Positions 3,001-62,993 of a stretch of DNA of 64,000 bases are shown piece by piece. Below the pieces are notes generated by a model. The model did not search any database, was not told the origin of the DNA, and saw only the letters and a list, made by a program, of their open reading frames with translations. The stretch is from Candidatus Magasanikiibacteriota bacterium (lineage in GTDB: Bacteria > Patescibacteriota > Patescibacteriia > Magasanikbacterales > GWA2-37-8). The stretch lies in the NCBI GenBank assembly GCA_026396515.1, contig JAPLWQ010000005.1:8011-72010 (forward strand), read 5' to 3'. The position numbers and the translations under genes are program-made. Position 1 is the first letter of the stretch, and every line of letters starts with the position of its first letter.

Positions 3001-6000
3001 TCCGTCTGACCGCCGCTATTTAAAGATGAGTTTTGGCATAGCGGGGGGTGAGCTTGCAACAGATACGGTGTATCAAGTCACTTTGTCGACGACAGGCAGC
3101 AGTACGGCGATGTCAGATATTCAACTCTGGTCCGGTGCCAGCTCAACCAACGAATATGTAAAGGCAAAGCCAATGCAGGAGGCTTTTACTTGGCGTTTTA
3201 GAACAAAAAAAGAAAAATGCGTTCTTGATACGGTAAATATTATCCCGACTCTTTTCCAATCGGTGTTCATCCACGACCGCCATGTTTATTCCGCGGAAGC
3301 GCGGTCGGCGCCCGATGCCTGCGATCCAAAAGGTCAGCGGCTGGATACGTGGTCAATTGATTGGCGCTGGCAATCAAGCTCAACCAGCACTGCCGTGGTA
3401 CAAGAATTTAAAACAAAAGGACGCAGTCCGCTCTGTAATGACAATTGCACCAGGAAAGGAAGCGATGTAACTTCCGATGCCTTGATGTTTGAACCGCTCT
3501 GTGGAAATAATATTATTGAAGCGGGTGAAGACTGCGACCCGCCGTTTATCAGTGTTACCGGAGCTGTGACCACTACTGTGTGTACCTTAAATTGTTTACG
3601 ATTGGGAAATACTAATACTACCAATACAATTCAGACCTCCGATATTGGTTTATGCGGTGATGGATTTGTTAACACTTTAACGCGCAGTGAAGAGTGCGAT
3701 CCGAATAATACGGCGACAAAAGCCGGGTGTTCAAAAAATTGTCTGCATATTGGTTCAATTCCGACTACCGGTGCGGAAGACGTAGCCGCCTCAATTTGCG
3801 GCAACGGAAAGATTGGTATAGGTGAAGAGTGCGATTTGGGCGTGGAGGTGGATTATACAAAAACAAGCTCATCTTTGAAATGCTCACCGACCTGTTTGCA
3901 TTTGGGCACGAGCTTATCGGCCGGGTGGTGCGCGGGAAATACTTCCACGCTGTTTAATGCGGTTGAATACAAGGCCGCCTGCGCTAAATCAAAAAGCCAG
4001 TGCGGAGATGGAATCAGAAGTCCGTCGGAAGATGCCGGTTGTGATTGTGGATTTGCCACCCAAACTCCTCATGGGACTGCACCGTTTGACCACATGTGTT
4101 ATTGCGGTGATTATCTCCATGAAATTTCCGCTGACGCGCTGAATCACTGTCCTAGAGTGAATCCGGCCTGTTCCTCAAATTGTCTCGGCAATTCGCGCTT
4201 GTTGTCTGAATGCGACCCGCGTACCACAACCACTATAGGAGGAATAGATATTGTCACGGCGAGAGAAGGCTGCGGTGAAAATAATCAGTATCTGGGATCG
4301 TCGCTTATGTATTCAGAGCCGTCTCTTTGCGGTGATACTATTGTTGGAATAGGGGAGGAAGCAGACTGCGAGGCGGGCTTTCTATTTACCCATCCTTTCT
4401 TTGATCCGTGGACTTTGGCGACCGGTGTCGGGCTCGGCGCAGTTGCCACAAATTCAAGCGGTATCCCGTCACAAATAGCCGACATTCAAGGCACCGGTTC
4501 CTCAACGGTTAATAATAAAACATACAGAAAATCAGATATCGGGAAATTTGAAATTATCTGCGGATTTAGCCAGGATGTTGAATGTAAAGATTTGCTCGGG
4601 GATGACTATGGTTTAGCCAGCAATTCCTGTTGCATGCCGCGTCCGTGGCTTATCAGCACTTACCCTATCAAAAATGACGCCCATCCGCCGTCTGACATTT
4701 GTCCGAATACATATATTGAAGCCAAATTTAATCACCTGATAGATGAAGCGTCTTTGGCCAATCATATATATGTGGCCCGTGGATATGATACCACCACTTC
4801 TTGTCCGGCCGGTTCTACCAACGTGTCGCCGTTAGTATTAGACGTTAAGACGTTGGGGCTCGATAGCGGGCCGTGGTATAAGCGCTTGTGGCATGGCATC
4901 GTCAATTGGTTTGCCCGAATTTTTGGCGACGAAACCAAAGCCGCGCCGTTTGTGATAAATTCCACAGTATATTGTTCGGAAGATGGTTTGCTTGCTCCGG
5001 CAAAAGTGTTTGTGGAAGGTCAAATGATCGGCGTGGGCACCACTTCCACCGTTATGATCCGTTTGCAGAGGCCATTAGCGACCAGCAGTGATTATGTGGT
5101 TATTCTCGGCCATGGTGTCAGAGATATACAGGGGGTTAGCATAGCCACTTCAACCTTGCAGTGGAAATTTATCACCGGCGATAAAATTTGTGAGTTGAAT
5201 AAAGTGGCGATTACTCCTGATAATTACATGTATAATAGGGCCGGTACTTCAAATAATTTTATTGCCAGTTCAACCGCGGTAAATGGACAAGTAATTCAGC
5301 CGGTAGACGGCTACAGGTGGGAATATGAATGGAGCCCGATGCAAAGCGAGTACGTTTCTTTAACCAACACCACCGACACGATCAATTTGGTGACCGCAAA
5401 AAACAGAAATGGCGAACTCGATTTATTGGCTACCACCAAATTTACCGAAAATTTATTTTTCCCCGACTCGCCGTCTCTAAGCGGCAAATCGCGCATTACG
5501 GTTTTCATCTGCGAAAACCCGTGGCCGTCTTCTTCCACGGTTCAGTTTCCATTTAAAGATATTCAATACGATTTTTCTTCTTATTATTGCATGGATAAAG
5601 GCAGTCCGGGTTTTGCCGATGATATGCCATTCGTAACTTCTTCGCGTGTTTGGATCCAAGAAGCGAACCCGTTCAAAAAACGATATTTGTTTACCAATTC
5701 TGATAATAAGGATGCCATTGGCATGCAAGTGTTTTACAACACAAGACACCTGTCAGTTAATGATTGGTATTTGGCACAGGGCTTCAGCGGTAATATGAAT
5801 TCGCTGAAGATTGACGGTTATGACGCGATTAGTGATAACAATAATTATTATATTGATGCTTTGGATTATTCTCAACCAGAGGAAGGTCTTTATTCCAACA
5901 TTTATCAATTTAGCATAAATAATGATGCTACGGCGGACGGCAAAGAAATATTCAAGCAGATGATGGAAAATTTGAAGTTTAACATGGGGTTGAAGAATGA

Positions 6001-26171: not shown

Positions 26172-26414
26172 ATGGAATATTTCGTTTATATTTTAGAAGA
26201 TGAGAGTGGAAAGAAATACAAAGGCATGACAAATGATTTAAATAGACGTTTCCATGAACATCTTCGAGGCAAAACCAAAACAACGAAACGGATGAAGGAT
26301 TTAAGATTGGTCTATTCTGAAGAATTTAACACATTTGAGGAGGCGAGAAAGAGAGAATTATATTTTAAGACAGCCGCAGGTCGTAAATTCATAAAGAAGA
26401 CTTTGGGTGTTTAG
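26172..26414 (+). CDS. GIY-YIG nuclease-domain protein (YhbQ/COG2827-like)
   Basis: 80 aa, reading YFVYILEDESGKKYKGMTNDLNRRFHEH...RE. Its stop codon overlaps the 5' end of tRNA-Val by 10 nt. Confidence 0.75.
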   Translation: MEYFVYILEDESGKKYKGMTNDLNRRFHEHLRGKTKTTKRMKDLRLVYSEEFNTFEEARKRELYFKTAAGRKFIKKTLGV

Positions 26415-26478
26415 CTCAGTTGGTTAGAGCGACTCGTTTACACCGAGTAGGCCAGGGGTTCGAATCCCTTAACACCCA
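26405..26478 (+). tRNA. tRNA-Val (anticodon TAC)
   Basis: A manual cloverleaf fits: acceptor GGGTGTT/AACACCC, D-stem GCTC/GAGC, anticodon stem ACTCG/CGAGT with loop TTTACAC, and a T-loop TTCGAAT. Confidence 0.85.
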
Positions 26479-26480
26479 CA

Positions 26481-42977: not shown

Positions 42978-43161
42978 CACCGGTTCCGGTATTTGATATT
43001 ATCTAGCAAGCCATAGACAGCAGGCGCCCTTACGGGCTTAATCTCCTGCCGAGGCAATCTTACCCGCAAAAATGCGGTTTTCAGGTCGAAGATTGTTAAA
43101 TGTCTGTGGTTTAAAGCCACAGTTTTATTTTTTAAATAAATTGCGGCTGTAAACCATTATT
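42974..43161 (+). promoter_or_regulatory. rplJ promoter (TTGACA-18-TATTAT) and L10 leader region
   Basis: TTGACA at 42974-42979 overlaps the pyrH stop codon. TATTAT lies at 42998-43003. The ~150-nt leader carries a hairpin (ctgtggtttaaagccacag) and is known to be bound autogenously by L10(L12)n. Confidence 0.55.
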
Positions 43162-53870: not shown

Positions 53871-55664
53871 TTATGAATTTTCCCGCCGGGTGGCGCGGAT
53901 GCGGTCGTTTTCCGTTAAATTTTGCTTTCGCAAACGGATACTCTGAGGAGTAATTTCCAGATATTCGTCCTCGGCTATAACTTCCAGCCCGCGCTCCAAG
54001 GACATTTCCTGCACAGAAGTGAGTTGTATCGCGATGTCAGCGTTGGATGAACGCATGTTTGTCAGTTTTTTCCCTTTGATCGGATTCACCGTCATATCGA
54101 TACCCTTCGATGTGTTGCCAATTACTTGTCCTTCATAAATGTCGGTATTTGCCGGGACATAAAGGGAGCCACGGTCCTGCAAATTAGCGAGCGAATAGGC
54201 GAGTGCTCTTCCGGTTTCACCGGAAATCATTGATCCGGTTGAGCGTTTTTCGATATCGCCGGCGTATGGGCGATAACCGATTACTTCGGAGCATAAAATG
54301 CCTTCACCGCGAGTGTCCACGATAAACTCATTACGGTAGCCGAGAAGACCCCGTGTGGGAATTTCATAAATTAGGCGGGTATGATTTTGTTCGGGATGCA
54401 TGGCCGCCATCCGTCCTTTGCGCTTTGACATTTTTTCTATCACTATACTTACATATTCAGCCGGCACGTCAACAGTGGCTTCTTCAAACGGTTCGTTTTT
54501 TATTCCGTCTATATCTTTTATGATTACTTGCGGTTGGGAAACCTGCAGTTCAAAACCTTCGCGGCGCATATTTTCAAGAAGAATTGCGATGTGCAGTTCG
54601 CCGCGTCCAAAAACTTTATAGTGGTCAACCGGCGAAAAATCAATTTTTAAACCGACGTTTACTTCCAGTTCTTTTTCCAGCCGCTCTCTGATTTGCCGAC
54701 TGGTGACGTATTTACCAACCTGGCCGGCAAAAGGGGAGTTATTAACTAAAAAATTCAGAGAAATAGTCGGTTCGTCTATTTTAATGGCTGGTAATGGTTC
54801 CTGGTTTTGGTCAACGCAAACAGTGTCGCCAATGTAGATGTCGGGCAAACCGGCGAGCATAACAATATCGCCGGCCACGGCCGCAGGCGCCTCCTTTTTC
54901 CCTACGCCTTCAAAAGTATAAATTTTCGTGATTTGTCCGGGAATAATTACTCCTTCCGGTTTTTTTATGAAAACGCGGGCGTTCAATTCGATTGTTCCCT
55001 GCACGACTCGTCCAATACCCATGCGGCCTAAGTAATTGTCGTAGGCCAGATTAAACGGCTGAAACGCAAATGGTTTTGAAGCGTCGGCTTCAGCCGGAGA
55101 TACTTTTTTTAAAATCGTGTCCAAAAGGGGAGTGAGATCAGTTGATTCATCAGACAGATTTATCTTGGCGATGCCTTGTTTGGCGATGGCGTAGACAGTA
55201 GCGAAATTGAGTTGTTCTTCGTTCGCGCCAAGGTCCATAAATAATTCCAGAACTTTTTCATGCGTCCACTCCGGGCGGGCGGCCGGCTTATCAATCTTAT
55301 TTATTACCACGATCGGCTTGATGCCGAGCTCCAATGATTTTTTTAAAACAAATTTTGTTTGTGGCATAGGTCCTTCCTGGGCGTCAACCACCAAAAGTAC
55401 TGAATCAATTGAGCGTAAAATGCGCTCCACCTCAGAGCCAAAATCGGCGTGGCCGGGTGTGTCCACAATATTTATCTTCGTATCCTTATAGAAAAGCGAA
55501 GCGTTTTTTGAATAGATGGTAATACCGCGCTCCAGTTCCAGGGCGTTGGAATCCATGCTGATTGAGTCATCGGTCACCATTCCGGTTTGGCGCATCAAAG
55601 CATCGGTCAGCTTTGTCTTCCCGTGGTCTACATGAGCTATAATAGCAATATTTCTAATCTCCAT
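53871..55664 (-). CDS. typA: Translational GTPase TypA/BipA
   Basis: The G1 motif [17 protein letters not shown] is present. The protein is 597 aa with an EF-G-like domain order. Confidence 0.9.
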
Positions 55665-55862
55665 ATTATTATATTTCGAACCTGCCCCGTAGTGAGCGCG
55701 GAGCGCTCTACTTCGGGGTTTCCATAGTTATGGGTGGAACTGGGCGAGTATATATGAAAAATGGGGTTTTGTCAATGAATTAAATAATATTCTATTAAAT
55801 AATGACAAAATAGTTTGACAAATCCGCGCAAATTGGATATAATCCTGGTCGAATTGCCAAAT

Positions 55863-55936
55863 GGGTCGGTAGTTCAACTGGTTAGAGCACCTCCCTGTCA
55901 CGGAGGAAGTTGCGGGTTCGAGTCCCGTCCGACCCG
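55863..55936 (+). tRNA. tRNA-Asp (anticodon GTC)
   Basis: A manual cloverleaf fits: acceptor GGGTCGG/CCGACCC, anticodon stem CCTCC/GGAGG with loop CTGTCAC, and a T-loop TTCGAGT. Confidence 0.85.
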
Positions 55937-57391
55937 CAAAGTCGCAAAATCTTTATAAATGGGAGCCCTGTCCATAAAGTGATAGGGCTCTTTTAGTTTA
56001 TATGTAGCCAAATTTTGGTTTTCAATTGTCAGGTTCCAAAGTAGGTTTTCTACGACTTGGCGCTTTCCGTATTTGTCCTTATCTAAAAACGTCTTCTTAG
56101 CTTTACTGGCCGTTAAAAAGCATTCTTTGGTAAGTTCCAAAGTGGAATACTCCTCTTTCTTTTTTGATTCCATTATTTTAATTTGCTCCTCGGTAGTAAC
56201 TATCTCATTGCTTATAGCTTGTATTTTTGACTTGTAAACATCTTCCGGCGTCAATCCGTCTAAATAACTGTTTAGGAGGCGCTCCTGCTTGCCAAGCGCA
56301 ATTTTGAGCTGTTCCGAAAGATTTTTAATAGCCACCGAGGCGTATTCTTCATTTATACCAATTTTTTCTTTTGCGGCCTGATACATAATTTCGACGAGCT
56401 CCTCGTCAAATTCGATATGGCCCAAGATATCGGCCACCATATTGTCTATGACCTCCGAACGTAAATATTTCTTGTGTTGTGCACAATCGCCCTTGCCGTT
56501 CGTGCAATAATAATAGTCATGCCCCTTTTTTCTGGTGGCCGTCAAAGTACAACCGCAGACATTACAACGCATGAAACCGCGATGAGTAAAGAATTGTTTT
56601 TTTGGTCGGCTTTTGTAACGACCGGAAATAATATCTTGCACTCTATCAAAAACTTCCTTTGTGATAAGTGGCTCATGTTTGCCGGGATAATAGACACCTT
56701 TTTTCACCATCATGCCATAATAAAAAGGGCTGCTAAGAATAATGTGAATCTTTGTTTTGCCAACCTTATCGCCGCCCTTTGTACGCATACCTTTTTCGTA
56801 CATCATTTTTGAAATTTCTCGAATACCATAACCACCGGTAGCATAAAGACGAAACATCTCGACTACATGAGGAGCGAGTTCTGGATTTACTTCAACTAAA
56901 TGATTGGTTATATTATTACGATAACCAAAAGGCGCGCAATTGGGCCACTCTCCTTTTTCAAGTTTTGCTCGTATTCCACGCTTTACATTTACACTCAATT
57001 CATCGATATATTTTTTGGCTATACCAAAACCCAAATTCATCATGAAGATGTCATCTGAAGTATTGTAAAACGTTTTTTCGTGGGTGCGTATCTCGCTTAT
57101 CTTGCCCTGATCCATCTTCCATTGAATCTCTCCGCCGTCTTTCGGATTTCTGGCTATGCGGTCCAATTTCCAGGCATAAATAACACAAGGATATTTTTCG
57201 ACATAACTTAACACTTCCTTGAAAACAGGACGCCCGGGGGCTTTGGCCGACATGCTTTCAGTAAAAATCTTTTCTAACGCTACCCCGTCTCTCTCAGCAA
57301 GTCGCCTCATTTCGTTAATTTGAGAATCAATAGAAAGAACCTGTCTATCTTCGGATTCTGTGGATTTGCGACAATAGGCAATATATTTCAT
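55898..57391 (-). CDS. Large serine recombinase (resolvase/invertase catalytic domain, recombinase domain and Zn-ribbon)
   Basis: The N-terminus reads [19 protein letters not shown]...DRIARN. A Zn ribbon ([28 protein letters not shown]) is present. The C-terminal 13 codons overlap tRNA-Asp in antisense. Confidence 0.8.
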
Positions 57392-57419
57392 AAATTTACG
57401 TTAATACGATTTCCCCATT

Positions 57420-58400
57420 TTAAACATTACCAGCAAGAAAAGCAAGAACATTTTTTCGTATCAACGGGTACTCCTTGAGATTATAACGAGTGTAATCCAT
57501 TGAACCGAGATAATGAATTGGGATATTCTGCCCTTGCTTTTCAATAGCGAAAACTGGTAGCTGCTTAACTACCGGCAAAATTAATTCGTCATAATAAGTA
57601 ATAATCGGTTTTAGCAAATCTCTCGAAGCAAAATATAACTTTTGACCTTTTTCAAGCTTTGAGCACCCAAATCCTTTATAGATATATTTGCTAATATAGC
57701 GACCAGTATTCTGAGCACTAGCAACGGCCTCGACGTGGAATATATGGGGCCAGATTTTTTTAATCTCATCGATTATACGATCGATGTAGGGCAGGTTAAA
57801 TATAATAATATGAAAATGTACGGCTCCGCGTTTCTGAAATTCAATAACCGCGACATATTTGAGTTCACTACTTTTTTTGCCCCACGCAAGATAATTCAAG
57901 CGGCGAACAAATTTTGTAAATTCGTAATTAGCGGCAGTAACATCAATTAAATTATGAGCAAAAGTCAGGGTTAAAAATACTGGACGGTACAGCCGACCGC
58001 TCTCGTCTTTCCACGCAAAAGCATTGCAATTGATATGATCAATTAGCTTATTACGAGCGCGACGAGACGAAGCTTCCTTAATTTCTTCTTCTGTTAGCCT
58101 TGGCTTTTCATTTAAGTAATCACTCTTAACAAAATTAGTTTTAATCCTCGAACCAACACCGAAATTTTTTTCATACTCACGATACTCTATGATGTTTCCG
58201 CAAATTTTTAATTTTTTGTTAGCATAATAACGATAATCGACCTCTTTCTTATCGACAAACTCCTGCTTCTCCAAAAGCTTAGATACTTCAGGGTCAGATT
58301 CTCCAGAATTATCGGGAATCAAAGGATCGCGATAATGCCGAATTGTTTTAGATATTTTCTTTATGTATGCTGGCTTGGTTTTCATATCATTTCTAATCAA
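57420..58400 (-). CDS. Rolling-circle replication initiator (HUH endonuclease, two-tyrosine superfamily I; phiX gpA/IS91-like motifs)
   Basis: Motif I is VFLTLTF, motif II is HFHIIIF and motif III is YISKYIYK. Confidence 0.7.
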   Translation of the reverse strand: MIRNDMKTKPAYIKKISKTIRHYRDPLIPDNSGESDPEVSKLLEKQEFVDKKEVDYRYYANKKLKICGNIIEYREYEKNFGVGSRIKTNFVKSDYLNEKPRLTEEEIKEASSRRARNKLIDHINCNAFAWKDESGRLYRPVFLTLTFAHNLIDVTAANYEFTKFVRRLNYLAWGKKSSELKYVAVIEFQKRGAVHFHIIIFNLPYIDRIIDEIKKIWPHIFHVEAVASAQNTGRYISKYIYKGFGCSKLEKGQKLYFASRDLLKPIITYYDELILPVVKQLPVFAIEKQGQNIPIHYLGSMDYTRYNLKEYPLIRKNVLAFLAGNV

Positions 58401-58675
58401 GTGTTAGGTAAGTCAAGAGTAACTACCGCCGACCCCTCCCCAAACGCTCGTTCCGGCCCCTGCGGGGCACGGAACGCACCGTTTGGGGTACGGCCGAGGT
58501 GCTCCGCTAATGACGCGGGACATTCAAATTCCGCGCCATTGACGCCGAAAGTCCTGTAGAGGGAGGCCAACTCAAGCAAGTACACTTCGGCCTGCTCAGC
58601 AGTAAGACAAACGCCGTGCCTATTACCCCAATAGCTTATTAGTCGTTCCGTAAGTTGTTGACTGAAATTAAACAT
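58397..58675 (-). CDS. Hypothetical small protein (island cargo)
   Basis: 92-aa ORF overlapping the Rep start by 4 nt. Confidence 0.4.
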   Translation of the reverse strand: MFNFSQQLTERLISYWGNRHGVCLTAEQAEVYLLELASLYRTFGVNGAEFECPASLAEHLGRTPNGAFRAPQGPERAFGEGSAVVTLDLPNT

Positions 58676-58748
58676 AAAAAAAGCCCTACATTATTTTGTA
58701 GAACTATTTTATATTTTTGCCCTTGAGAAACCTTTACCTAAAATTTAC

Positions 58749-59603
58749 CTAATAAGCGGATATGTATTTTGAATTTACCTTAACCCAGCCATTCTTGCCT
58801 GTTGAAAAATCAAGAAAATCATCAATTTTAAGCGCGGTATTCTTGCGAATCTTATCGTTAATTGATCTGCAGGCAGTTAAACAACTGGTACATTTATAAT
58901 CGTTTTCATCGACCTTAAACGCACTTACCGATATATCATAATAATTGGTTTGTTGGTAAGGACCATTAGAAATCAAATACTCGAATAGCATGGCCTGTTT
59001 GGTCGCGCTTCTCAATTTAGAAATCTTTACTCTTTCATTGCCTATAGATAATATTTTTGTCTCTTCGTTGTAGCTCCATTGGTTACTGGGAATTCCCTCG
59101 CTTTCTTTTTGTCCAACATCATCGTTGGCGCCATCTACTTGACTAAACTCCAACTTGTTCAAAAAGGACATAATTTTATTATGAACCACCATGAAATCGT
59201 CTATGTGCAATTGTTTGCGGTATGGGGCTAAAGGAATTTCTAAATCGATAGGACGTATGGGCAGCTGCATTACGATGTCATTTTTGGGGTCGTCCATTAT
59301 TCTTTTCAGGGCCTCAAAGTATCCGTAATTAAACCAAATATTAGTCATCAGATTACGCTGATGCAAAATATGCATTTGTTCTTTAGAAATCTTTTTAGTA
59401 TTGTAATCCTCAAGCATCTTCGAATGAAGTTTATCATATTTGCTGCCCTCATTTTTTAGCATTTCTTTAATCTCCGGCTGCTTTTCGATAATACTCACAT
59501 AATCGTAAAAGACATGGAACATGTCGAAAATATTGTCATTTATAGAATGCAACTGTTTTACGAGTCGCTCAAGCTCAATTTTGAACAAAATGATATTTGA
59601 CAT
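58749..59603 (-). CDS. Hypothetical protein (island cargo)
   Basis: 284-aa ORF, AT-rich, with no recognised motif. Confidence 0.45.
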   Translation of the reverse strand: MSNIILFKIELERLVKQLHSINDNIFDMFHVFYDYVSIIEKQPEIKEMLKNEGSKYDKLHSKMLEDYNTKKISKEQMHILHQRNLMTNIWFNYGYFEALKRIMDDPKNDIVMQLPIRPIDLEIPLAPYRKQLHIDDFMVVHNKIMSFLNKLEFSQVDGANDDVGQKESEGIPSNQWSYNEETKILSIGNERVKISKLRSATKQAMLFEYLISNGPYQQTNYYDISVSAFKVDENDYKCTSCLTACRSINDKIRKNTALKIDDFLDFSTGKNGWVKVNSKYISAY

Positions 59604-59686
59604 ATTGGCTTAATCTAAACAAAATAACTGAAATATGTCAACATTGCGAAATAAAGCGAAAAAGGCTATAATTTATATAATTTAAT

Positions 59687-60907
59687 ATGTACAAAAGAAC
59701 GCGAAAGCCCGAACTTTCATACCCGGGCGAAAAACTTATCAGGGGTCGACACAAAATTCACCCTTATCCGGCCATGCTCCACCCCCTTCTTGTTGATTAC
59801 CTTCTTCATAAATACGGAAAGAAGGGAAATGTTGTATTTGACCCATTTTGTGGAAGCGGTGTTACTTTGTTTGAGTCGGCAGTCCATGGGCACGCGTCAG
59901 TCGGCTTCGAAATTAACCCCCTAGCCTTATTAATAGCAAAAACAAAAGTAGAACATTACGATATAGCTCGATTGAAATCCGAATATGCTGACTTTAAAAA
60001 AACGATCTTAAACGGAAAAAAAATCGATGTCCCCCAAATTAATAATATCGATTATTGGTACACAAGAGATATTATCAAAGATTTAGGGAAAATTAGAGAA
60101 GTATTAAAACGAAAGAAGTACAAATATAAAGATTTTTTTATTACAAATTTTGCCTATATTTGCAGAAAACAATCGTTAACGCGCGCTGGAGAATTCAAAA
60201 GATATAGAATTAAAAAGGAAAAAATCGACTCATTTCAAAACAAGGTATTTGAAATGTTATTTAGTCGTATTGAAGAAATGATTGAAATTTATTCAAAAAC
60301 TGACAAACCGCTAAAGCGGTCGAAACTAGTACTGGCAAATTCGGAAAACCCCATTGCCAAGAACATCAAATACGATTTAGTAATCACCTCGCCACCATAC
60401 GGCGATAGCCGGACCACCGTTGCTTACGGCGAATTCTCAAGCTTTGGGGCCGATTGGGTTAGCGACTTAAATCCATACGGAATCAATAAATACAGAGTCG
60501 ACAAAGAAAGCCTTGGAAAAATTAGTGTCGTAAATGGTGAGCTTTCTAAAAATTCAATCTTAAACAACGTGCTAAATAAAATTGCCGCTCAAGACAAGAA
60601 GCGAGCCGACGACGTATTGTATTTCTATAACGGCTACTACAACGCTGTTAAAAATGTTGTGAAAAATCTCAATAAAGATGGAACCGCTTGCTTTATCGTT
60701 GGTAATCGTACCGTAAAAGGTATCAATATACCCATGGACCAAATAACAGCATCATTTCTAGAGGACATGAAGCTAAAATTTGATGGCATTTATGTTAGAG
60801 ACATATTAAACAAAATCATGCCGTCAAAGAACTCGCCTTCAAATATAACCGGGATAAAGTCGCAGACTATGCTTCATGAATATATAGTAATTTTTCATAA
60901 AAATTAA
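59687..60907 (+). CDS. Type II DNA methyltransferase (amino-MTase with SPPY catalytic motif; possibly N4-cytosine)
   Basis: Motif I is VVFDPFCGSGVT and motif IV is VITSPPYGDSRT. The FxGxG...TRD...SPPY order matches the alpha class. Confidence 0.75.
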   Translation: MYKRTRKPELSYPGEKLIRGRHKIHPYPAMLHPLLVDYLLHKYGKKGNVVFDPFCGSGVTLFESAVHGHASVGFEINPLALLIAKTKVEHYDIARLKSEYADFKKTILNGKKIDVPQINNIDYWYTRDIIKDLGKIREVLKRKKYKYKDFFITNFAYICRKQSLTRAGEFKRYRIKKEKIDSFQNKVFEMLFSRIEEMIEIYSKTDKPLKRSKLVLANSENPIAKNIKYDLVITSPPYGDSRTTVAYGEFSSFGADWVSDLNPYGINKYRVDKESLGKISVVNGELSKNSILNNVLNKIAAQDKKRADDVLYFYNGYYNAVKNVVKNLNKDGTACFIVGNRTVKGINIPMDQITASFLEDMKLKFDGIYVRDILNKIMPSKNSPSNITGIKSQTMLHEYIVIFHKN

Positions 60908-60909
60908 AT

Positions 60910-61608
60910 ATGCCAGTACCAGAACTACGAGATATTATTAGAAAACTGTCAATAATTAAACACAGGGGATATATACAGAGTTTAAGAAGGGGCCCGACAG
61001 GTATCGGATTTACTCTAGAAACACTATTAGATATCGAGGAAAATAACATAAGTGCTCCAGATTTAGGAACCATCGAACTAAAAGCCCAACGAGAGAACCA
61101 CGCAGGCATGACAACACTATTTACATTTAATAATAAAGCGTGGCAAATTAATCCGTTAGAGGCAATTAGAAGATATGGTAGCCCCGATAAAGACGGTAGA
61201 ATGGGTATGTACTATACAATGAGTGCGGTACCCAATAGCGCGGGTTTGTTATTAGTGATTGATGACGAACTTGTGTCGATCAGACATATAGACGGCACTA
61301 TTATTGCGACATGGAAACTAGCCGACATTGAAAAGCGCTTCGATGCCAAAGTTAAAAACGTTTTATTAGTTAAAGCAAAAACGGAGGAAAGGGACGGGGT
61401 CGAATATTTTCTTTATGACCGCGCTCGTCTTTTATCCGGCGGAACAACAAAAAATATTCTAAAAAGTCAATTTGAAAATGGCCAATTGCTTATTGACCTT
61501 AGGCTACACGACAAAGGGACCACGGCCAGAAATCACGGAACAGGCTTCCGTGTATATGAAAGCAACTTAGAAAACCTTTACGAACGTATAGAAGAAATTG
61601 ATTTTTAA
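60910..61608 (+). CDS. Putative cognate Type II restriction endonuclease (possibly MvaI/BcnI-like)
   Basis: 232-aa ORF starting 3 nt after the MTase stop. It contains APDLGTIELK, a PD-ExK-like segment. Confidence 0.45.
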   Translation: MPVPELRDIIRKLSIIKHRGYIQSLRRGPTGIGFTLETLLDIEENNISAPDLGTIELKAQRENHAGMTTLFTFNNKAWQINPLEAIRRYGSPDKDGRMGMYYTMSAVPNSAGLLLVIDDELVSIRHIDGTIIATWKLADIEKRFDAKVKNVLLVKAKTEERDGVEYFLYDRARLLSGGTTKNILKSQFENGQLLIDLRLHDKGTTARNHGTGFRVYESNLENLYERIEEIDF

Positions 61609-61630
61609 TATCCGGATGCATCAAAATAAA

Positions 61631-61661
61631 TTAAGACACCTCAAAATATGAGGTGTCTTAA
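61631..61661. terminator. Bidirectional terminator hairpin between the REase (+) and the HEPN module (-)
   Basis: ttaagacacctcaaaatatgaggtgtcttaa, with A/T runs on both sides. Confidence 0.55.
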
Positions 61662-61681
61662 TCGTTCAAAAAAAACTGCGC

Positions 61682-62050
61682 TTAATTGCCATGTGGCTTT
61701 TTCGATGAAATCACATAACCCTCATAAATCATATTGCCATTAATCTTTCTATCTTTAATTTCGGCTCCGCTCCCGATGTCGAGCAACCCAACTATAAGGT
61801 GTTCATCGATCGGTAATATGCCGACTCTAGCAATAGTATTTAGCTCTTCGTCGGTAAAGTACTTCTTCATTAGAGCCAAAAAACTAGTAAATATATCTCC
61901 ACTGTTTTTTTCGTTCACCCAGCTCGCTGACAAAATAATAGACCATTTATCTATAAGCTCATCCATTTTCATGATAGCCAAAACATTAACACTGTTTTTC
62001 TGTGCTTTTTCAAAGTCAACTAAAATTGATTGTAACTTCTTGTCTAGCAT
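61682..62050 (-). CDS. Hypothetical protein, downstream partner of the HEPN-like gene
   Basis: 122 aa, overlapping the upstream gene by 7 nt. No nucleotidyltransferase motif is present. Confidence 0.4.
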   Translation of the reverse strand: MLDKKLQSILVDFEKAQKNSVNVLAIMKMDELIDKWSIILSASWVNEKNSGDIFTSFLALMKKYFTDEELNTIARVGILPIDEHLIVGLLDIGSGAEIKDRKINGNMIYEGYVISSKKPHGN

Positions 62051-62493
62051 TTTTTTTGCCTATTAATTATTGTCATAATACCATATTTACCCGGCTTCTT
62101 ACAAATCAAACTATCGAGTAATTGGGGTACGTTCGTTTCGTTGAAGGTATTAAGCCTTGCCATGTCATACCTCATGGAAATCCAGTCACCCTGATAATAC
62201 TTAGTAAAATCAGACCACACTTGGAACCCAATACCGCGAGGACCAAAGATATGTCCAAGCCCGGAAAGTCTCAAAAGTCTATCAAAACTATGCGTTAAAA
62301 ACCACGCATCATCTTTGGGATGGTCCGGGTATTTCTCAAGATGTAGTGTTTTACAAATAACTGATTTTAAAATGCATTCAAGCGCATTGCCCATTATATA
62401 GCCCGAACCCTGCCAGTCATGCGCGTTCATTAAAACAATCGCAGACTTTATGCGCGCCTTACAAATTAACTTTAGTTCGTGTCCATTTGCCAT
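62044..62493 (-). CDS. HEPN-like domain protein
   Basis: 149 aa with a helical N-terminus (AIVLMNAHDWQGSGYIMGNALECILKSVI) and an R-x5-H motif (RLSGLGH). Confidence 0.4.
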   Translation of the reverse strand: MANGHELKLICKARIKSAIVLMNAHDWQGSGYIMGNALECILKSVICKTLHLEKYPDHPKDDAWFLTHSFDRLLRLSGLGHIFGPRGIGFQVWSDFTKYYQGDWISMRYDMARLNTFNETNVPQLLDSLICKKPGKYGIMTIINRQKKC

Positions 62494-62993
62494 CTAATTG
62501 ACAATTACATTACCAAAGCGCCCCGTTTTCAGTTTGGATAGCATACCGTATCAGCAGATTATTAGCAAGACATGTTTGCATAAAGAAATGTTCCCACTTC
62601 GTCCCATACACCCCGCAAAAATCCGGCTGCCTTATTGGCAACCGGATTTTTGTTGGGGCGGAAGCGAGCAAATAGTTTTGCTCGCGTCGGGACGAGAACG
62701 CCGGAGCGATGTCGCGCGACGCATTCTGGCGAGCGCGACCGCGAGGCGGTGGCTAGGCAAAATTTTCGGAAGAAAATTTTAGCCGAAGCCGAGTCCCGTC
62801 CGACCCGCTCCGCATTAATGCTTTTCAATTGAGAGGCGTTATTTTTTTTACAAAAAAAGGCTCCGAGTGCGTTCGGTGTAAGAGAAGAATCAAAGGAGGG
62901 GGTGATTCCACCATACACCAAACACATTCGGAGCCCTTAAATTTTTACATTTTTAATTTAGCACTATTTCGGTTCCTTGTCAAGGGTCGCTGC

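Follow-up and report, generated by a model that had tools for sequence, protein, structure and literature searches.

The question raised by this locus is what separates typA from the infC-rpmI-rplT operon in a metagenome-assembled genome (MAG) of Candidatus Magasanikbacteria, a host from the candidate phyla radiation (CPR), and how that DNA came to be there. The stretch analyzed, to be referred to as the window, is a 64-kb segment (64,000 nucleotides) of contig JAPLWQ010000005.1, and positions are counted from its first letter. The DNA in question is flanked by typA (53871-55664) on one side and by rplT, rpmI and infC (from 62994 onward) on the other. Its G+C content is 0.35-0.41 over 56000-62500, as compared to 0.44-0.49 in the flanks. 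The first-pass annotation of the window, made from the letters alone, had described an AT-rich integrative element at this position in a CPR-type genome, and the position, the base composition and the type of host are all as it described. For the host, this rests on the Rep and TypA proteins, identical copies of which are assigned by NCBI to a Candidatus Magasanikbacteria MAG. We conclude that 55938-62808 is probably an integrated small mobile element of 6.9 kb, either an integrative rolling-circle plasmid or an entity similar to integrative and mobilizable elements (IMEs), and that it belongs to a family widespread in Patescibacteria. Relative to a close relative of the host, the element is an insertion that adjoins the very 3′ end of a tRNA-Asp gene and is bounded by a 19-bp direct repeat. 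It consists of a conserved core (orf284, orf92, a rolling-circle Rep and a large serine recombinase, LSR) and of swappable cargo, here a Type II restriction-modification (R-M) system and a two-gene module.

The integration target is an intact tRNA-Asp(gtc) gene (55863-55937, + strand), recognized by ARAGORN and with a score of 66.3 bits against the Rfam tRNA model. The last 19 nucleotides of the tRNA, CGAGTCCCGTCCGACCCGC, form the left copy of the direct repeat and the core of the left attachment site, attL (55919-55937, + strand). The right copy, corresponding to the displaced 3′ end of the tRNA, is located at 62790-62808 (+ strand) and matches exactly. This sequence has exactly two copies in the window, with 0 matches expected from shuffles, so the copying of the tRNA 3′ end at both borders, as originally reported, is confirmed. 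At the occupied site, the attL junction is formed by GGGTTCGAGTCCCGTCCGACCCGC followed by AAAGTCGCAAAATC, and the attR junction by TTTTAGCCGAAGC, CGAGTCCCGTCCGACCCGC and TCCGCATTAATGC, in this order. The predicted attB is GGGTTCGAGTCCCGTCCGACCCGC joined to TCCGCATTAATGC. For attP there are two predicted versions, one based on the outer repeat (TTTTAGCCGAAGCCGAGTCCCGTCCGACCCGCAAAGTCGCAAAATC) and the other based on the cargo-side motif to be described below (GTTCCCACTTCGTCCC...CCGCAAAGTCGCAAAATC).

The tRNA gene is preceded by a sigma-70-like promoter (55815-55843, 12/12). A terminator-like hairpin, with a 12-pair stem and then a T-run, is located just 3′ of the tRNA (55961-55992, + strand), inside the 3′ coding end of the LSR gene on the opposite strand, and may be a terminator that the element supplies for the tRNA. 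On the other side of the element, the right repeat is followed by the host terminator (62816-62849) and then by rplT.

The integration proposed in the first-pass annotation implies that tRNA-Asp is followed directly by the rplT flank where the element is missing, and such an empty attB is present in a related species. The locus (L076, from JGI 3300081892) comes from a related Magasanikbacteria and carries the closest relative of TypA on a long contig, with 89% identity. Its infC-rpmI-rplT region has 77% nucleotide identity to window 63997-62836. Its tRNA-Asp region is 98.9% identical to window 55940-55850, and the tRNA is within 14 nt of rplT. There is no counterpart of window 55941-62835 in L076. 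The window sequence beyond the right repeat aligns to the L076 sequence directly after tRNA-Asp, including the terminator shared with rplT. L076 is an empty site, from a related species rather than from the same population. It also has three extra genes between tRNA-Asp and typA (L076 6487-9577) that are absent from the window, encoding an uncharacterized protein of 257 aa, a HisKA histidine kinase and a response regulator. An indel 5′ of the tRNA, unrelated to the element, accounts for this difference.

Look-ups of TypA and RplT found only two Logan contigs of the organism. They come from two runs and end at 55934 (L001) and 55906 (L002), with a mutual overlap of ~29 nt. Both ends fall inside the 3′ half of tRNA-Asp and represent a branch of the assembly graph at the att site. 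The breaks were considered as a sign of mixed occupied and empty sites, and this was dropped as not decisive because a k=31 branch in a conserved tRNA can stem from other organisms.

Between the two repeats there are eight intact ORFs, in agreement with the earlier count, and the identities assigned to them hold for the recombinase, the Rep, the methyltransferase, the endonuclease and two proteins of no known family, while that of a HEPN-like module is not confirmed (see below). The LSR (55898-57391, - strand, 497 aa) contains the three domains of its class, all of them above the Pfam cut-offs: Resolvase (PF00239, 64.5 bits, 1.5e-17), Recombinase (PF07508, 63.7 bits, 2e-17) and Zn_ribbon_recom (PF13408, 31.2 bits, 2.9e-7). 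Among the PHROG families it matches the integrase phrog_95 (1.9e-77). Its ORF overlaps tRNA-Asp by 40 nt in antisense, and its last 13 codons are antisense to the T-arm and acceptor of the tRNA. A serine recombinase that reads antisense into the tRNA is therefore correct as first described, and its catalytic residues are intact. Arg8, Ser10, Gln24, Asp77 and Arg81, together with the zinc-ribbon residues Cys279, Cys281, Cys296 and Cys303, are conserved at ≥97% among 66 distinct LSRs of the family. The first five of these residues match the catalytic pattern R8/S10/Q22/D81/R85 of Bxb1 (PMC12884075). The LSR is ~26% identical to the nearest phage LSR.

The C-terminus of the LSRs in this family reads ...R-x-x-RDSNP..., in one frame throughout, and this sequence corresponds to the T-arm read in antisense. 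It was also considered that excision might give a longer, functional LSR. The ORF would be extended by 69 codons in silico. In the relatives, however, the extension after 'RDS' can have any length between +1 and +69 aa and shows no conservation, and this candidate was rejected.

The Rep is encoded directly upstream of the LSR on the same strand (57420-58385, - strand, 321 aa from the ATG), with an ORF that is open back to a TTG at 58400. It matches PF23343 (REP_ORF2-G2P) with 73.6 bits (cut-off 27.8, 1.6e-20), as well as phrog_3419 and phrog_3584. The HUH motifs noticed at the outset are all present: FLTLTF (motif 1), the HFH of HFHIIIF (HUH) and YISKYIYK (two-tyrosine). Residues Thr139, Thr141, His190, His192, Tyr230, Tyr234 and Lys237 are invariant among 30 aligned homologues. 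Exact-protein look-ups of the Rep (TTG start) and of the LSR gave no match.

The Rep has 232 detectable relatives. Some of them are the sole gene of a small plasmid, NC_022994.1 (1540 bp, Geobacillus sp. 1121, Rep5) and NC_004938.1 (1786 bp, Brevibacillus borstelensis), and share ~36-37% identity with the window Rep over ~77% of the protein. In seven further cases, a relative is the only gene on a metagenomic contig of 1.5-2.1 kb whose ends overlap (L125, L129, L131, L145, L158, L160 and L060), and none of these contigs has a recombinase. Related Reps are also found on two larger contigs with terminal overlaps and no recombinase, L149 (4961 bp) and L067 (7274 bp). The smallest of all these contigs leave little space for anything other than the Rep. 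Because of these overlaps, the Rep-carrying contigs are probably circular. The presence of Rep relatives alone on tiny plasmids and circles indicates that this family is a bona fide rolling-circle replication initiator. By extension from these relatives, the Rep would replicate the element in the window after its excision.

In five loci (L045, L048, L051, L058 and L061, from Clostridia, Parcubacteria and Patescibacteria MAGs), a Rep is found without an adjoining LSR. A tRNA-Ser is located 1.2-2 kb downstream of the Rep in these loci, on the opposite strand, and they may use another type of integrase at the same kind of target.

Upstream of the Rep are a small protein, orf92 (58397-58675, - strand), and a core gene that is always located just upstream of the Rep in the family, orf284 (58749-59603, - strand). 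The early description of both as proteins without a recognizable family holds. For orf92 there is no match in Pfam, PHROG, NCBIfam or PADLOC. Its conservation in the nearest relatives is limited to the N-terminal ~40 aa. Residues 1-40 have tblastn matches upstream of the Rep in L003, L017, L041, L162 and L163, and orf92 is present in L161. Homologues of orf284 are found upstream of the Rep in many loci. At E≤1e-3 there are 176 representative proteins, and the conserved part is the C-terminal ~110 aa, with the matches mainly covering residues ~170-283. Profile searches with orf284 found nothing in PDB or Pfam, and an AlphaFold2 (AF2) model, computed from three sequences, has a pLDDT of 36. The small orf92 is a candidate regulator or directionality factor, and orf92 and orf284 would be the only conserved candidates for the latter role. 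The boundary between core and cargo is a divergent intergenic region (59604-59686, no strand assigned), with promoter-like sites on both strands at 59597-59672.

The cargo begins on the other side of this region. A Type II DNA methyltransferase (59687-60907, + strand), of the N6_N4_Mtase family and with an SPPY motif, matches PF01555 (1.4e-17), the PADLOC profile MTase_II (1.8e-86) and phrog_18146 (2.4e-42). It is followed by a Type II restriction endonuclease of the MvaI/BcnI family (60910-61608, + strand), which matches PF15515 (MvaI_BcnI, 9e-41) over its full length and the PADLOC profile REase_II (1.9e-18). The two genes are on the same strand and 2 nt apart, and by their profile matches they form a Type II R-M system. 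The SPPY amino-methyltransferase and putative endonuclease named in the first reading are thereby substantiated.

The remaining two cargo genes are orf122 (61682-62050, - strand) and orf149 (62044-62493, - strand), which overlap by 7 nt. A terminator-like hairpin with a 15-pair stem is located between the convergent endonuclease gene and orf122 (61629-61663, no strand assigned). The product of orf149 contains an R-x5-H motif (RLSGLGH), the feature behind the earlier HEPN-like label of this pair. However, no HEPN profile in Pfam or NCBIfam matches orf149, its AF2 model from a single sequence is too poor for use, with a pLDDT of 37, and orf122 has no MNT-type match. Only weak matches were found for the pair, to phrog_5737 (3e-6) and PDC-M28A (2.8e-4), and the label is not confirmed. 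For the four cargo genes of the window, no homologue was found in any other related locus.

The GTDB genomes, the JGI metagenomes and IMG/VR were scanned with the Rep alignment, giving ~155 loci, some of them duplicated between collections. In ~106 of the 155, the gene after the Rep, on its own strand, encodes an LSR. In 55 loci, the stop region of the LSR overlaps a tRNA 3′ end in antisense, as located by ARAGORN. Fifteen anticodons are targeted, most often those of Ser, and next come Gln, Trp, Ile, Val, Arg, Tyr, Asn and Asp. The hosts are almost all Patescibacteria, and include Falkowbacteria (one MAG of which has four copies), Saccharibacteria, Paceibacterota, Kaiserbacteria, Moraniibacteriota, WWE3 and Magasanikbacteria. 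In L008, L018, L021 and L023, elements of 5.7-10.1 kb have direct repeats of 14-22 bp at their borders, and the repeat in L164 is 20 bp. The suspicion that this is a distinct lineage is strengthened by the recurrence of the Rep-then-LSR module, with differing cargo, beside tRNA genes in dozens of CPR genomes. As to the suggestion that the lineage is possibly undescribed, no description of a CPR-wide family of Rep-LSR elements was found in open-access full text, though earlier descriptions may exist.

Nine of the loci (L006, L014, L020, L024, L029, L033, L035, L038 and L062) are third-party annotation (TPA) assemblies titled 'uncultured Gammaproteobacteria', with an element layout near-identical to that in Falkowbacteria/Patescibacteria. 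Two others were placed in archaeal bins, L036 in Bathyarchaeia and P0242 in Methanoregula. All of these are probably mis-binned or mislabelled contigs.

The nearest relative of the element is in L161. The Rep proteins of the two are 80% identical, and the DNA is 89% identical over window 56148-59651, covering orf284, orf92, Rep and LSR. The homology ends in the divergent region, and a different gene takes the place of the window methyltransferase. The next relatives are located in other tRNAs, L163 in tRNA-Asn (LSR 56% identical) and L164 in tRNA-Trp (LSR 52% identical).

The layout is constant in 37 non-redundant elements: an att-like motif, the cargo, the divergent region, an orf284-like gene, the Rep, the LSR and the tRNA. 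The cargo comprises 1-7 genes on the opposite strand, and the distance from the motif to the end of the LSR is 3.9-9.9 kb. A census of the 144 ORFs between motif and Rep (including the orf284-like genes) is dominated by defence-type families, among them AbiLi/AAA_21/AAA_15 ATPases (OLD-, AriA-, PtuA- or GajA-like), ThsB TIR, Mrr_cat, EcoRI methylase and DUF2726. In the related element of L082, the divergent region contains a LOOT RNA (RF03000, 86.6 bits; L082 6976-7100, - strand), which is located upstream of the orf284-like gene.

In two cases that appeared to lack a tRNA, a group I intron (RF00028) starts at the end of the LSR gene (L128 12637-12901, - strand; L082 10745-11141, - strand). 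The target tRNAs in these cases are thus intron-bearing and were missed by ARAGORN. A subgroup of the LSRs (L104 and L130) has a different tail, ...VRDYIRT or ...DVRT, and no tRNA. These LSR genes end ~0.9 kb from an S-adenosylmethionine (SAM) riboswitch on the opposite strand (L104 13545-13651, - strand; L130 13916-14022, - strand), which suggests a change of target in this subgroup, to a SAM-regulated protein gene and its 3′ end.

The last ~220 bp of the element (62590-62789) are not a plain spacer. Following the Rep strand, the exact repeat (62808-62790) is succeeded by a GC-rich stretch, a hairpin (62652-62616) and the att-like motif TTTGCGGGGTGTATGGGACGAAGTGGGAAC (62619-62590). The motif (62590-62619, - strand) is conserved in the family, with the consensus ...GGGACGNANT[GT][GA]GAAC. 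It was found 88 times in 53 loci, in each case on the Rep strand. Nearly all copies are upstream of the Rep, the exceptions being in L097-L099, where the motif is located past the tRNA. The first cargo gene ends beside the motif in all 37 elements.

The two halves of the motif have different relationships to the target. The left half copies the antisense of the acceptor stem of the occupied tRNA (11/11 for Ile, with matches also for Ser, Gln, Trp and Asp), and that of the window motif mimics the acceptor antisense of tRNA-Asp. The right half, GGGA-NNNNN-T[TG]GGAAC, has 5 extra nucleotides as compared to the antisense of the tRNA T-loop, GGGA-TTCGAAC. This offset of 5 nt was observed in every motif/tRNA pairing examined, in a comparison that concerns one arm only. 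In LSR attachment sites, the motif for the zinc-ribbon domain is 5 bp closer to the center in attB than in attP (PMC3783163). With this half-site model, the offset gives the motif the appearance of a P-type half-site and the tRNA T-loop that of a B-type one, and the motif is a candidate P-type half-site of the LSR, in a canonical attR. The motif was also considered as the origin for the Rep. However, it is absent from the Rep-only circular plasmids, for which reason it is attributed to the recombinase and not to the Rep, and the sequence of its left half changes with the target tRNA. The motif of L164 is directly adjacent to the 20-nt direct repeat. This arrangement is a clean one in terms of predicted half-sites, with attR as B′-core-P and attL as P′-core-B.

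In the window, the motif and the outer exact repeat are separated by two further features. The hairpin, CAAAAATCCGG...CCGGATTTTTG (62616-62652, no strand assigned), has an A-run/stem/T-run structure, as read from the sequence, and is terminator-like in both directions. Equivalent hairpins precede the motif in the relatives. The second feature is a GC-rich, highly structured non-coding module (62653-62789, no strand assigned), with a fold z-score of -7.9 for 62560-62830 (- strand). No Rfam family matches this module. Among 12 related copies, compensatory changes are found in 13 of the 26 predicted pairs, including a long-range stem. A hairpin and a GC-rich module are located between the motif and the outer exact repeat in L008, L018, L021 and L157 as well as in the window, and a module of the same kind is found between the LSR and the tRNA instead in L110, L016 and L116. 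Deletion of ~192 bp (about 62606-62797) from the window would leave a canonical attR, so that the module may be a separable unit inserted into the att core. A single-strand origin, a non-coding RNA and a nested mini-insertion are the candidates for its nature.

The module is ~150-200 nt in length, with at least two sequence subfamilies and multiple copies per locus. Copies are located at L157:7798-7943, L088:1371-1516 and 4550-4695, L093:2640-2785, L094:4104-4261, L133:3814-3957, L097:5566-5719/16364-16517/18441-18594, L110:13109-13257, L116:4582-4732, and L021:742-888 and 1638-1783.

Arrays of up to five units, each with a hairpin, a motif and cargo but without core genes, are found in L005/L087, where the copies of the motif are at 1282, 3104, 3505, 4647 and 6408. 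Arrays of 3-5 same-strand copies of the motif are also present in L014, L023, L086, L142, L153 and L156. The copies have a terminator-like hairpin before them and one or two cargo genes after them, with neither Rep nor LSR in between, and resemble cassette stacks beside an element. In addition, tandem or partial elements are found in L021 and L091/L093. The contigs L091 and L093 were examined as a possible circular form. They have a perfect overlap, but their ends do not close, and they are a tandem or a remnant array. The arrays and the tandem or partial elements fit a history in which elements integrated repeatedly at one tRNA and decayed there.

These features can be combined into a mechanism. 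The LSR would recombine a site on the element with the 3′ end of the tRNA, the core of the element site being located inside the last codons of the LSR gene. The element would bring its own tRNA 3′ end and, within the LSR gene, an antisense terminator, and because it carries this copy the tRNA would stay intact. The cargo-side motif would repeat the T-loop sequence 5 bp further out, the geometry expected of an attP half-site. Excision, probably with the help of a directionality factor, would yield a circle. The two-tyrosine HUH Rep would then nick an origin and replicate the excised circle, as its relatives do on plasmids of 1.5-2 kb. The R-M cargo may serve in the defence of the host and may also stabilize the element, as an addiction module.

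A broader scheme is possible, although we consider it somewhat doubtful. It would be a CPR-wide system, in which a dedicated clade of LSRs reads the T-arm and acceptor of tRNAs as attB and moves freely from one to another of at least 15 tRNA species, with an occasional switch to other genes, and with each att core located within the last codons of the LSR itself. Together with the Rep, the LSR would drive plasmid-like elements that stack motif-marked defence cassettes beside tRNAs, in an integron-like accretion, and the covarying structured module of ~150 nt, of a class not recognized before, could nest in the att site.

Several observations weigh against the conclusion that 55938-62808 is an integrated, circle-forming mobile element. 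A degenerate pattern, built to match any of attL, attR, attB and attP in this strain, had no match in IMG/VR or the JGI metagenomes, where neither a circular contig nor an attP junction nor an empty site of the same species was seen. The excised form that would have followed from the original proposal is therefore not in evidence there. Among 160 loci, the circular contigs are all without an LSR. As no excised form was seen, the current activity of the element is inferred. Within the element, neither a replication origin or Rep nick site nor a directionality factor was identified. Palindromic arms flanking the outer 19-bp repeat were considered and rejected, as 938 of 2000 shuffles reach the observed score, which is not significant. 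The cargo side also offers two candidate sites, the exact repeat further out and the conserved motif further in, with the structured module between them, and the data fit either. Finally, the Rep could act as a relaxase instead of a replication initiator.

The last point leads to the alternative that survives best, a mobilizable island, or IME in the strict sense, in which the Rep would mainly be a relaxase that nicks an oriT for the transfer apparatus of a helper. No transfer or virion genes were found among the eight proteins of the element with Pfam and PHROG, so the absence of conjugation genes noted earlier stands, and an element without transfer genes of its own fits such an island. Similar enzymes are known in Streptococcus, where 118 of the 144 IMEs encode relaxases related to rolling-circle replication (RCR) initiators (Rep_2, PHA00330, MobT and Viral_Rep) beside tyrosine or serine integrases, and where the distinction between Rep and relaxase is blurred (PMC5704250). 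However, close relatives of the window Rep stand alone on autonomous plasmids of 1.5-2 kb. Moreover, there is no gene for a coupling protein or a type IV secretion system (T4SS) in the element or in the cargo census of the family, and to our knowledge no conjugative helper has been described in CPR, which counts against the island as well. We consider the island rather unlikely. The roles of relaxase and replication initiator are not mutually exclusive.

An element that integrated once and has since become a fixed, decaying remnant, with Rep and LSR kept by chance or for another role, is less likely still, and we regard it as improbable. It would explain why no excised form was found in IMG/VR, the JGI metagenomes or the family loci, and the related loci are often degraded arrays, with partial LSRs, repeated motifs and modules without core genes. 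On the other hand, the eight ORFs are intact, the catalytic residues are conserved and the 19-bp repeat is still exact. In addition, the 89%-identical core is associated with different cargo in L161, and the closest relatives are located in different tRNAs. Taken together, the intact genes, the exact repeat, the swapped cargo and the different tRNA sites indicate recent mobility of the lineage.

An integrated single-stranded DNA phage (plectrovirus or inovirus-like), or a satellite packaged by a helper, is the least probable, for although distant relatives of the Rep include the rep of the Spiroplasma plectrovirus SVGII3 and proteins in 'bajarodino' virus records of 5-8 kb, related Reps are present on nine contigs of 4-9 kb in IMG/VR, and filamentous phages of Ralstonia, the phiRSM type, integrate at a tRNA-Ser 3′ end through a serine recombinase (PMC4471427), no pI/Zot-type morphogenesis ATPase or coat protein domain was found among the eight ORFs with Pfam and PHROG, the variable region of the family holds defence rather than virion genes, and the IMG/VR relatives have no LSR. 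A satellite lifestyle is still conceivable.

The integrated mobile element, our preferred reading, shares features with several known systems, among which the IMEs of Firmicutes and the phiRSM phages come closest, and differs from each of them. It is similar to the IMEs of Firmicutes in being a small integrated element with an HUH/Rep-type initiator or relaxase, a tyrosine or serine recombinase and variable cargo, and in having no conjugation apparatus of its own (PMC5704250). As in an IME, there is an integration/excision module, the LSR, and there are defined borders, given by the 19-bp repeats and the empty site. However, IMEs with a serine recombinase integrate within protein genes and have very short repeats (PMC5704250), whereas the window element is located at a tRNA 3′ end, has a 19-bp repeat and keeps its target intact. 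It also differs from the Firmicutes IMEs in its PF23343 Rep, its CPR host and the location of the att core inside the recombinase ORF.

The phiRSM phages are rolling-circle replicons that integrate into a tRNA 3′ end with a resolvase-like serine recombinase, their attP being the 3′ 13 bp of tRNA-Ser (PMC4471427), and Ser is also the commonest target in the CPR family. In comparison with the LSR, the phiRSM enzyme is a small one of the resolvase/invertase type, without the Recombinase and Zn-ribbon domains. Moreover, phiRSM is a virus with M13-like structural genes, and its attP is located between genes and not in the recombinase ORF.

The logic of pSAM2 and the integrative and conjugative elements of actinomycetes (AICEs), to which the first-pass annotation had likened the element, applies only in a functional sense. 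Integration into a tRNA gene, excision and replication by an RCR initiator are common to both. However, AICEs use a tyrosine Int with Xis and an FtsK/TraB-type transfer protein, none of which is present in the window element, and the matches to RepSA profiles are below the cut-offs (PF20199, 30.7 with a cut-off of 34; NF041486, 19.2 with a cut-off of 700). Membership in this group was therefore rejected.

The LSRs of phages (A118/LI, Bxb1 and phiC31; PMC3783163) have the same three-domain architecture and catalytic residues, and the putative outer, ZD-like motif of the CPR family is displaced by 5 bp between the cargo-side motif and the tRNA, as it is between attP and attB half-sites. The CPR family differs in having tRNA targets, identical att segments of 14-22 bp and an LSR ORF that ends inside the target. 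No targeting of tRNA genes is known for serine integrases (PMC4383910), and predicted cases of tRNA-gene integration (14 of 297) still need experimental proof (PMC7192596). Against this background, an LSR clade dedicated to tRNAs is a notable point. No report of such a clade, of an att core within the end of the recombinase's own ORF or of the motif with the module was found in open-access full text.

The archaeal tyrosine integrases of the SSV type have an attP within the int ORF and a tRNA-gene target (PMC7253208). They belong to the tyrosine family and integration splits int in two, whereas integration in the window changes only the last few codons of the LSR, with all domains intact. The tiny RCR plasmids NC_022994.1 and NC_004938.1 have a Rep of the same family as the window element, but they are Rep-only, 1.5-1.8 kb in size, and have no recombinase, tRNA link or att-like motif.

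The element would widen the repertoire of serine integrases by an LSR clade that is built around tRNA 3′ ends at dozens of independent loci. As a putative half-site logic of attB and attP is readable, the recognition and switching of targets are directly testable. The mobile elements of CPR/Patescibacteria are poorly described, and an element of 4-10 kb that integrates at conserved tRNA sites, brings defence genes along and probably multiplies in circular form would give these reduced genomes a main route of gene flow and of phage defence. A CPR-native LSR with its att site and Rep could also be a starting point for integration or shuttle vectors, of which CPR has almost none.

Two features elsewhere in the window are ordinary chromosomal ones, a tRNA-Val(tac) gene at 26405-26479 and an L10 leader (RF00557) at 42993-43138.

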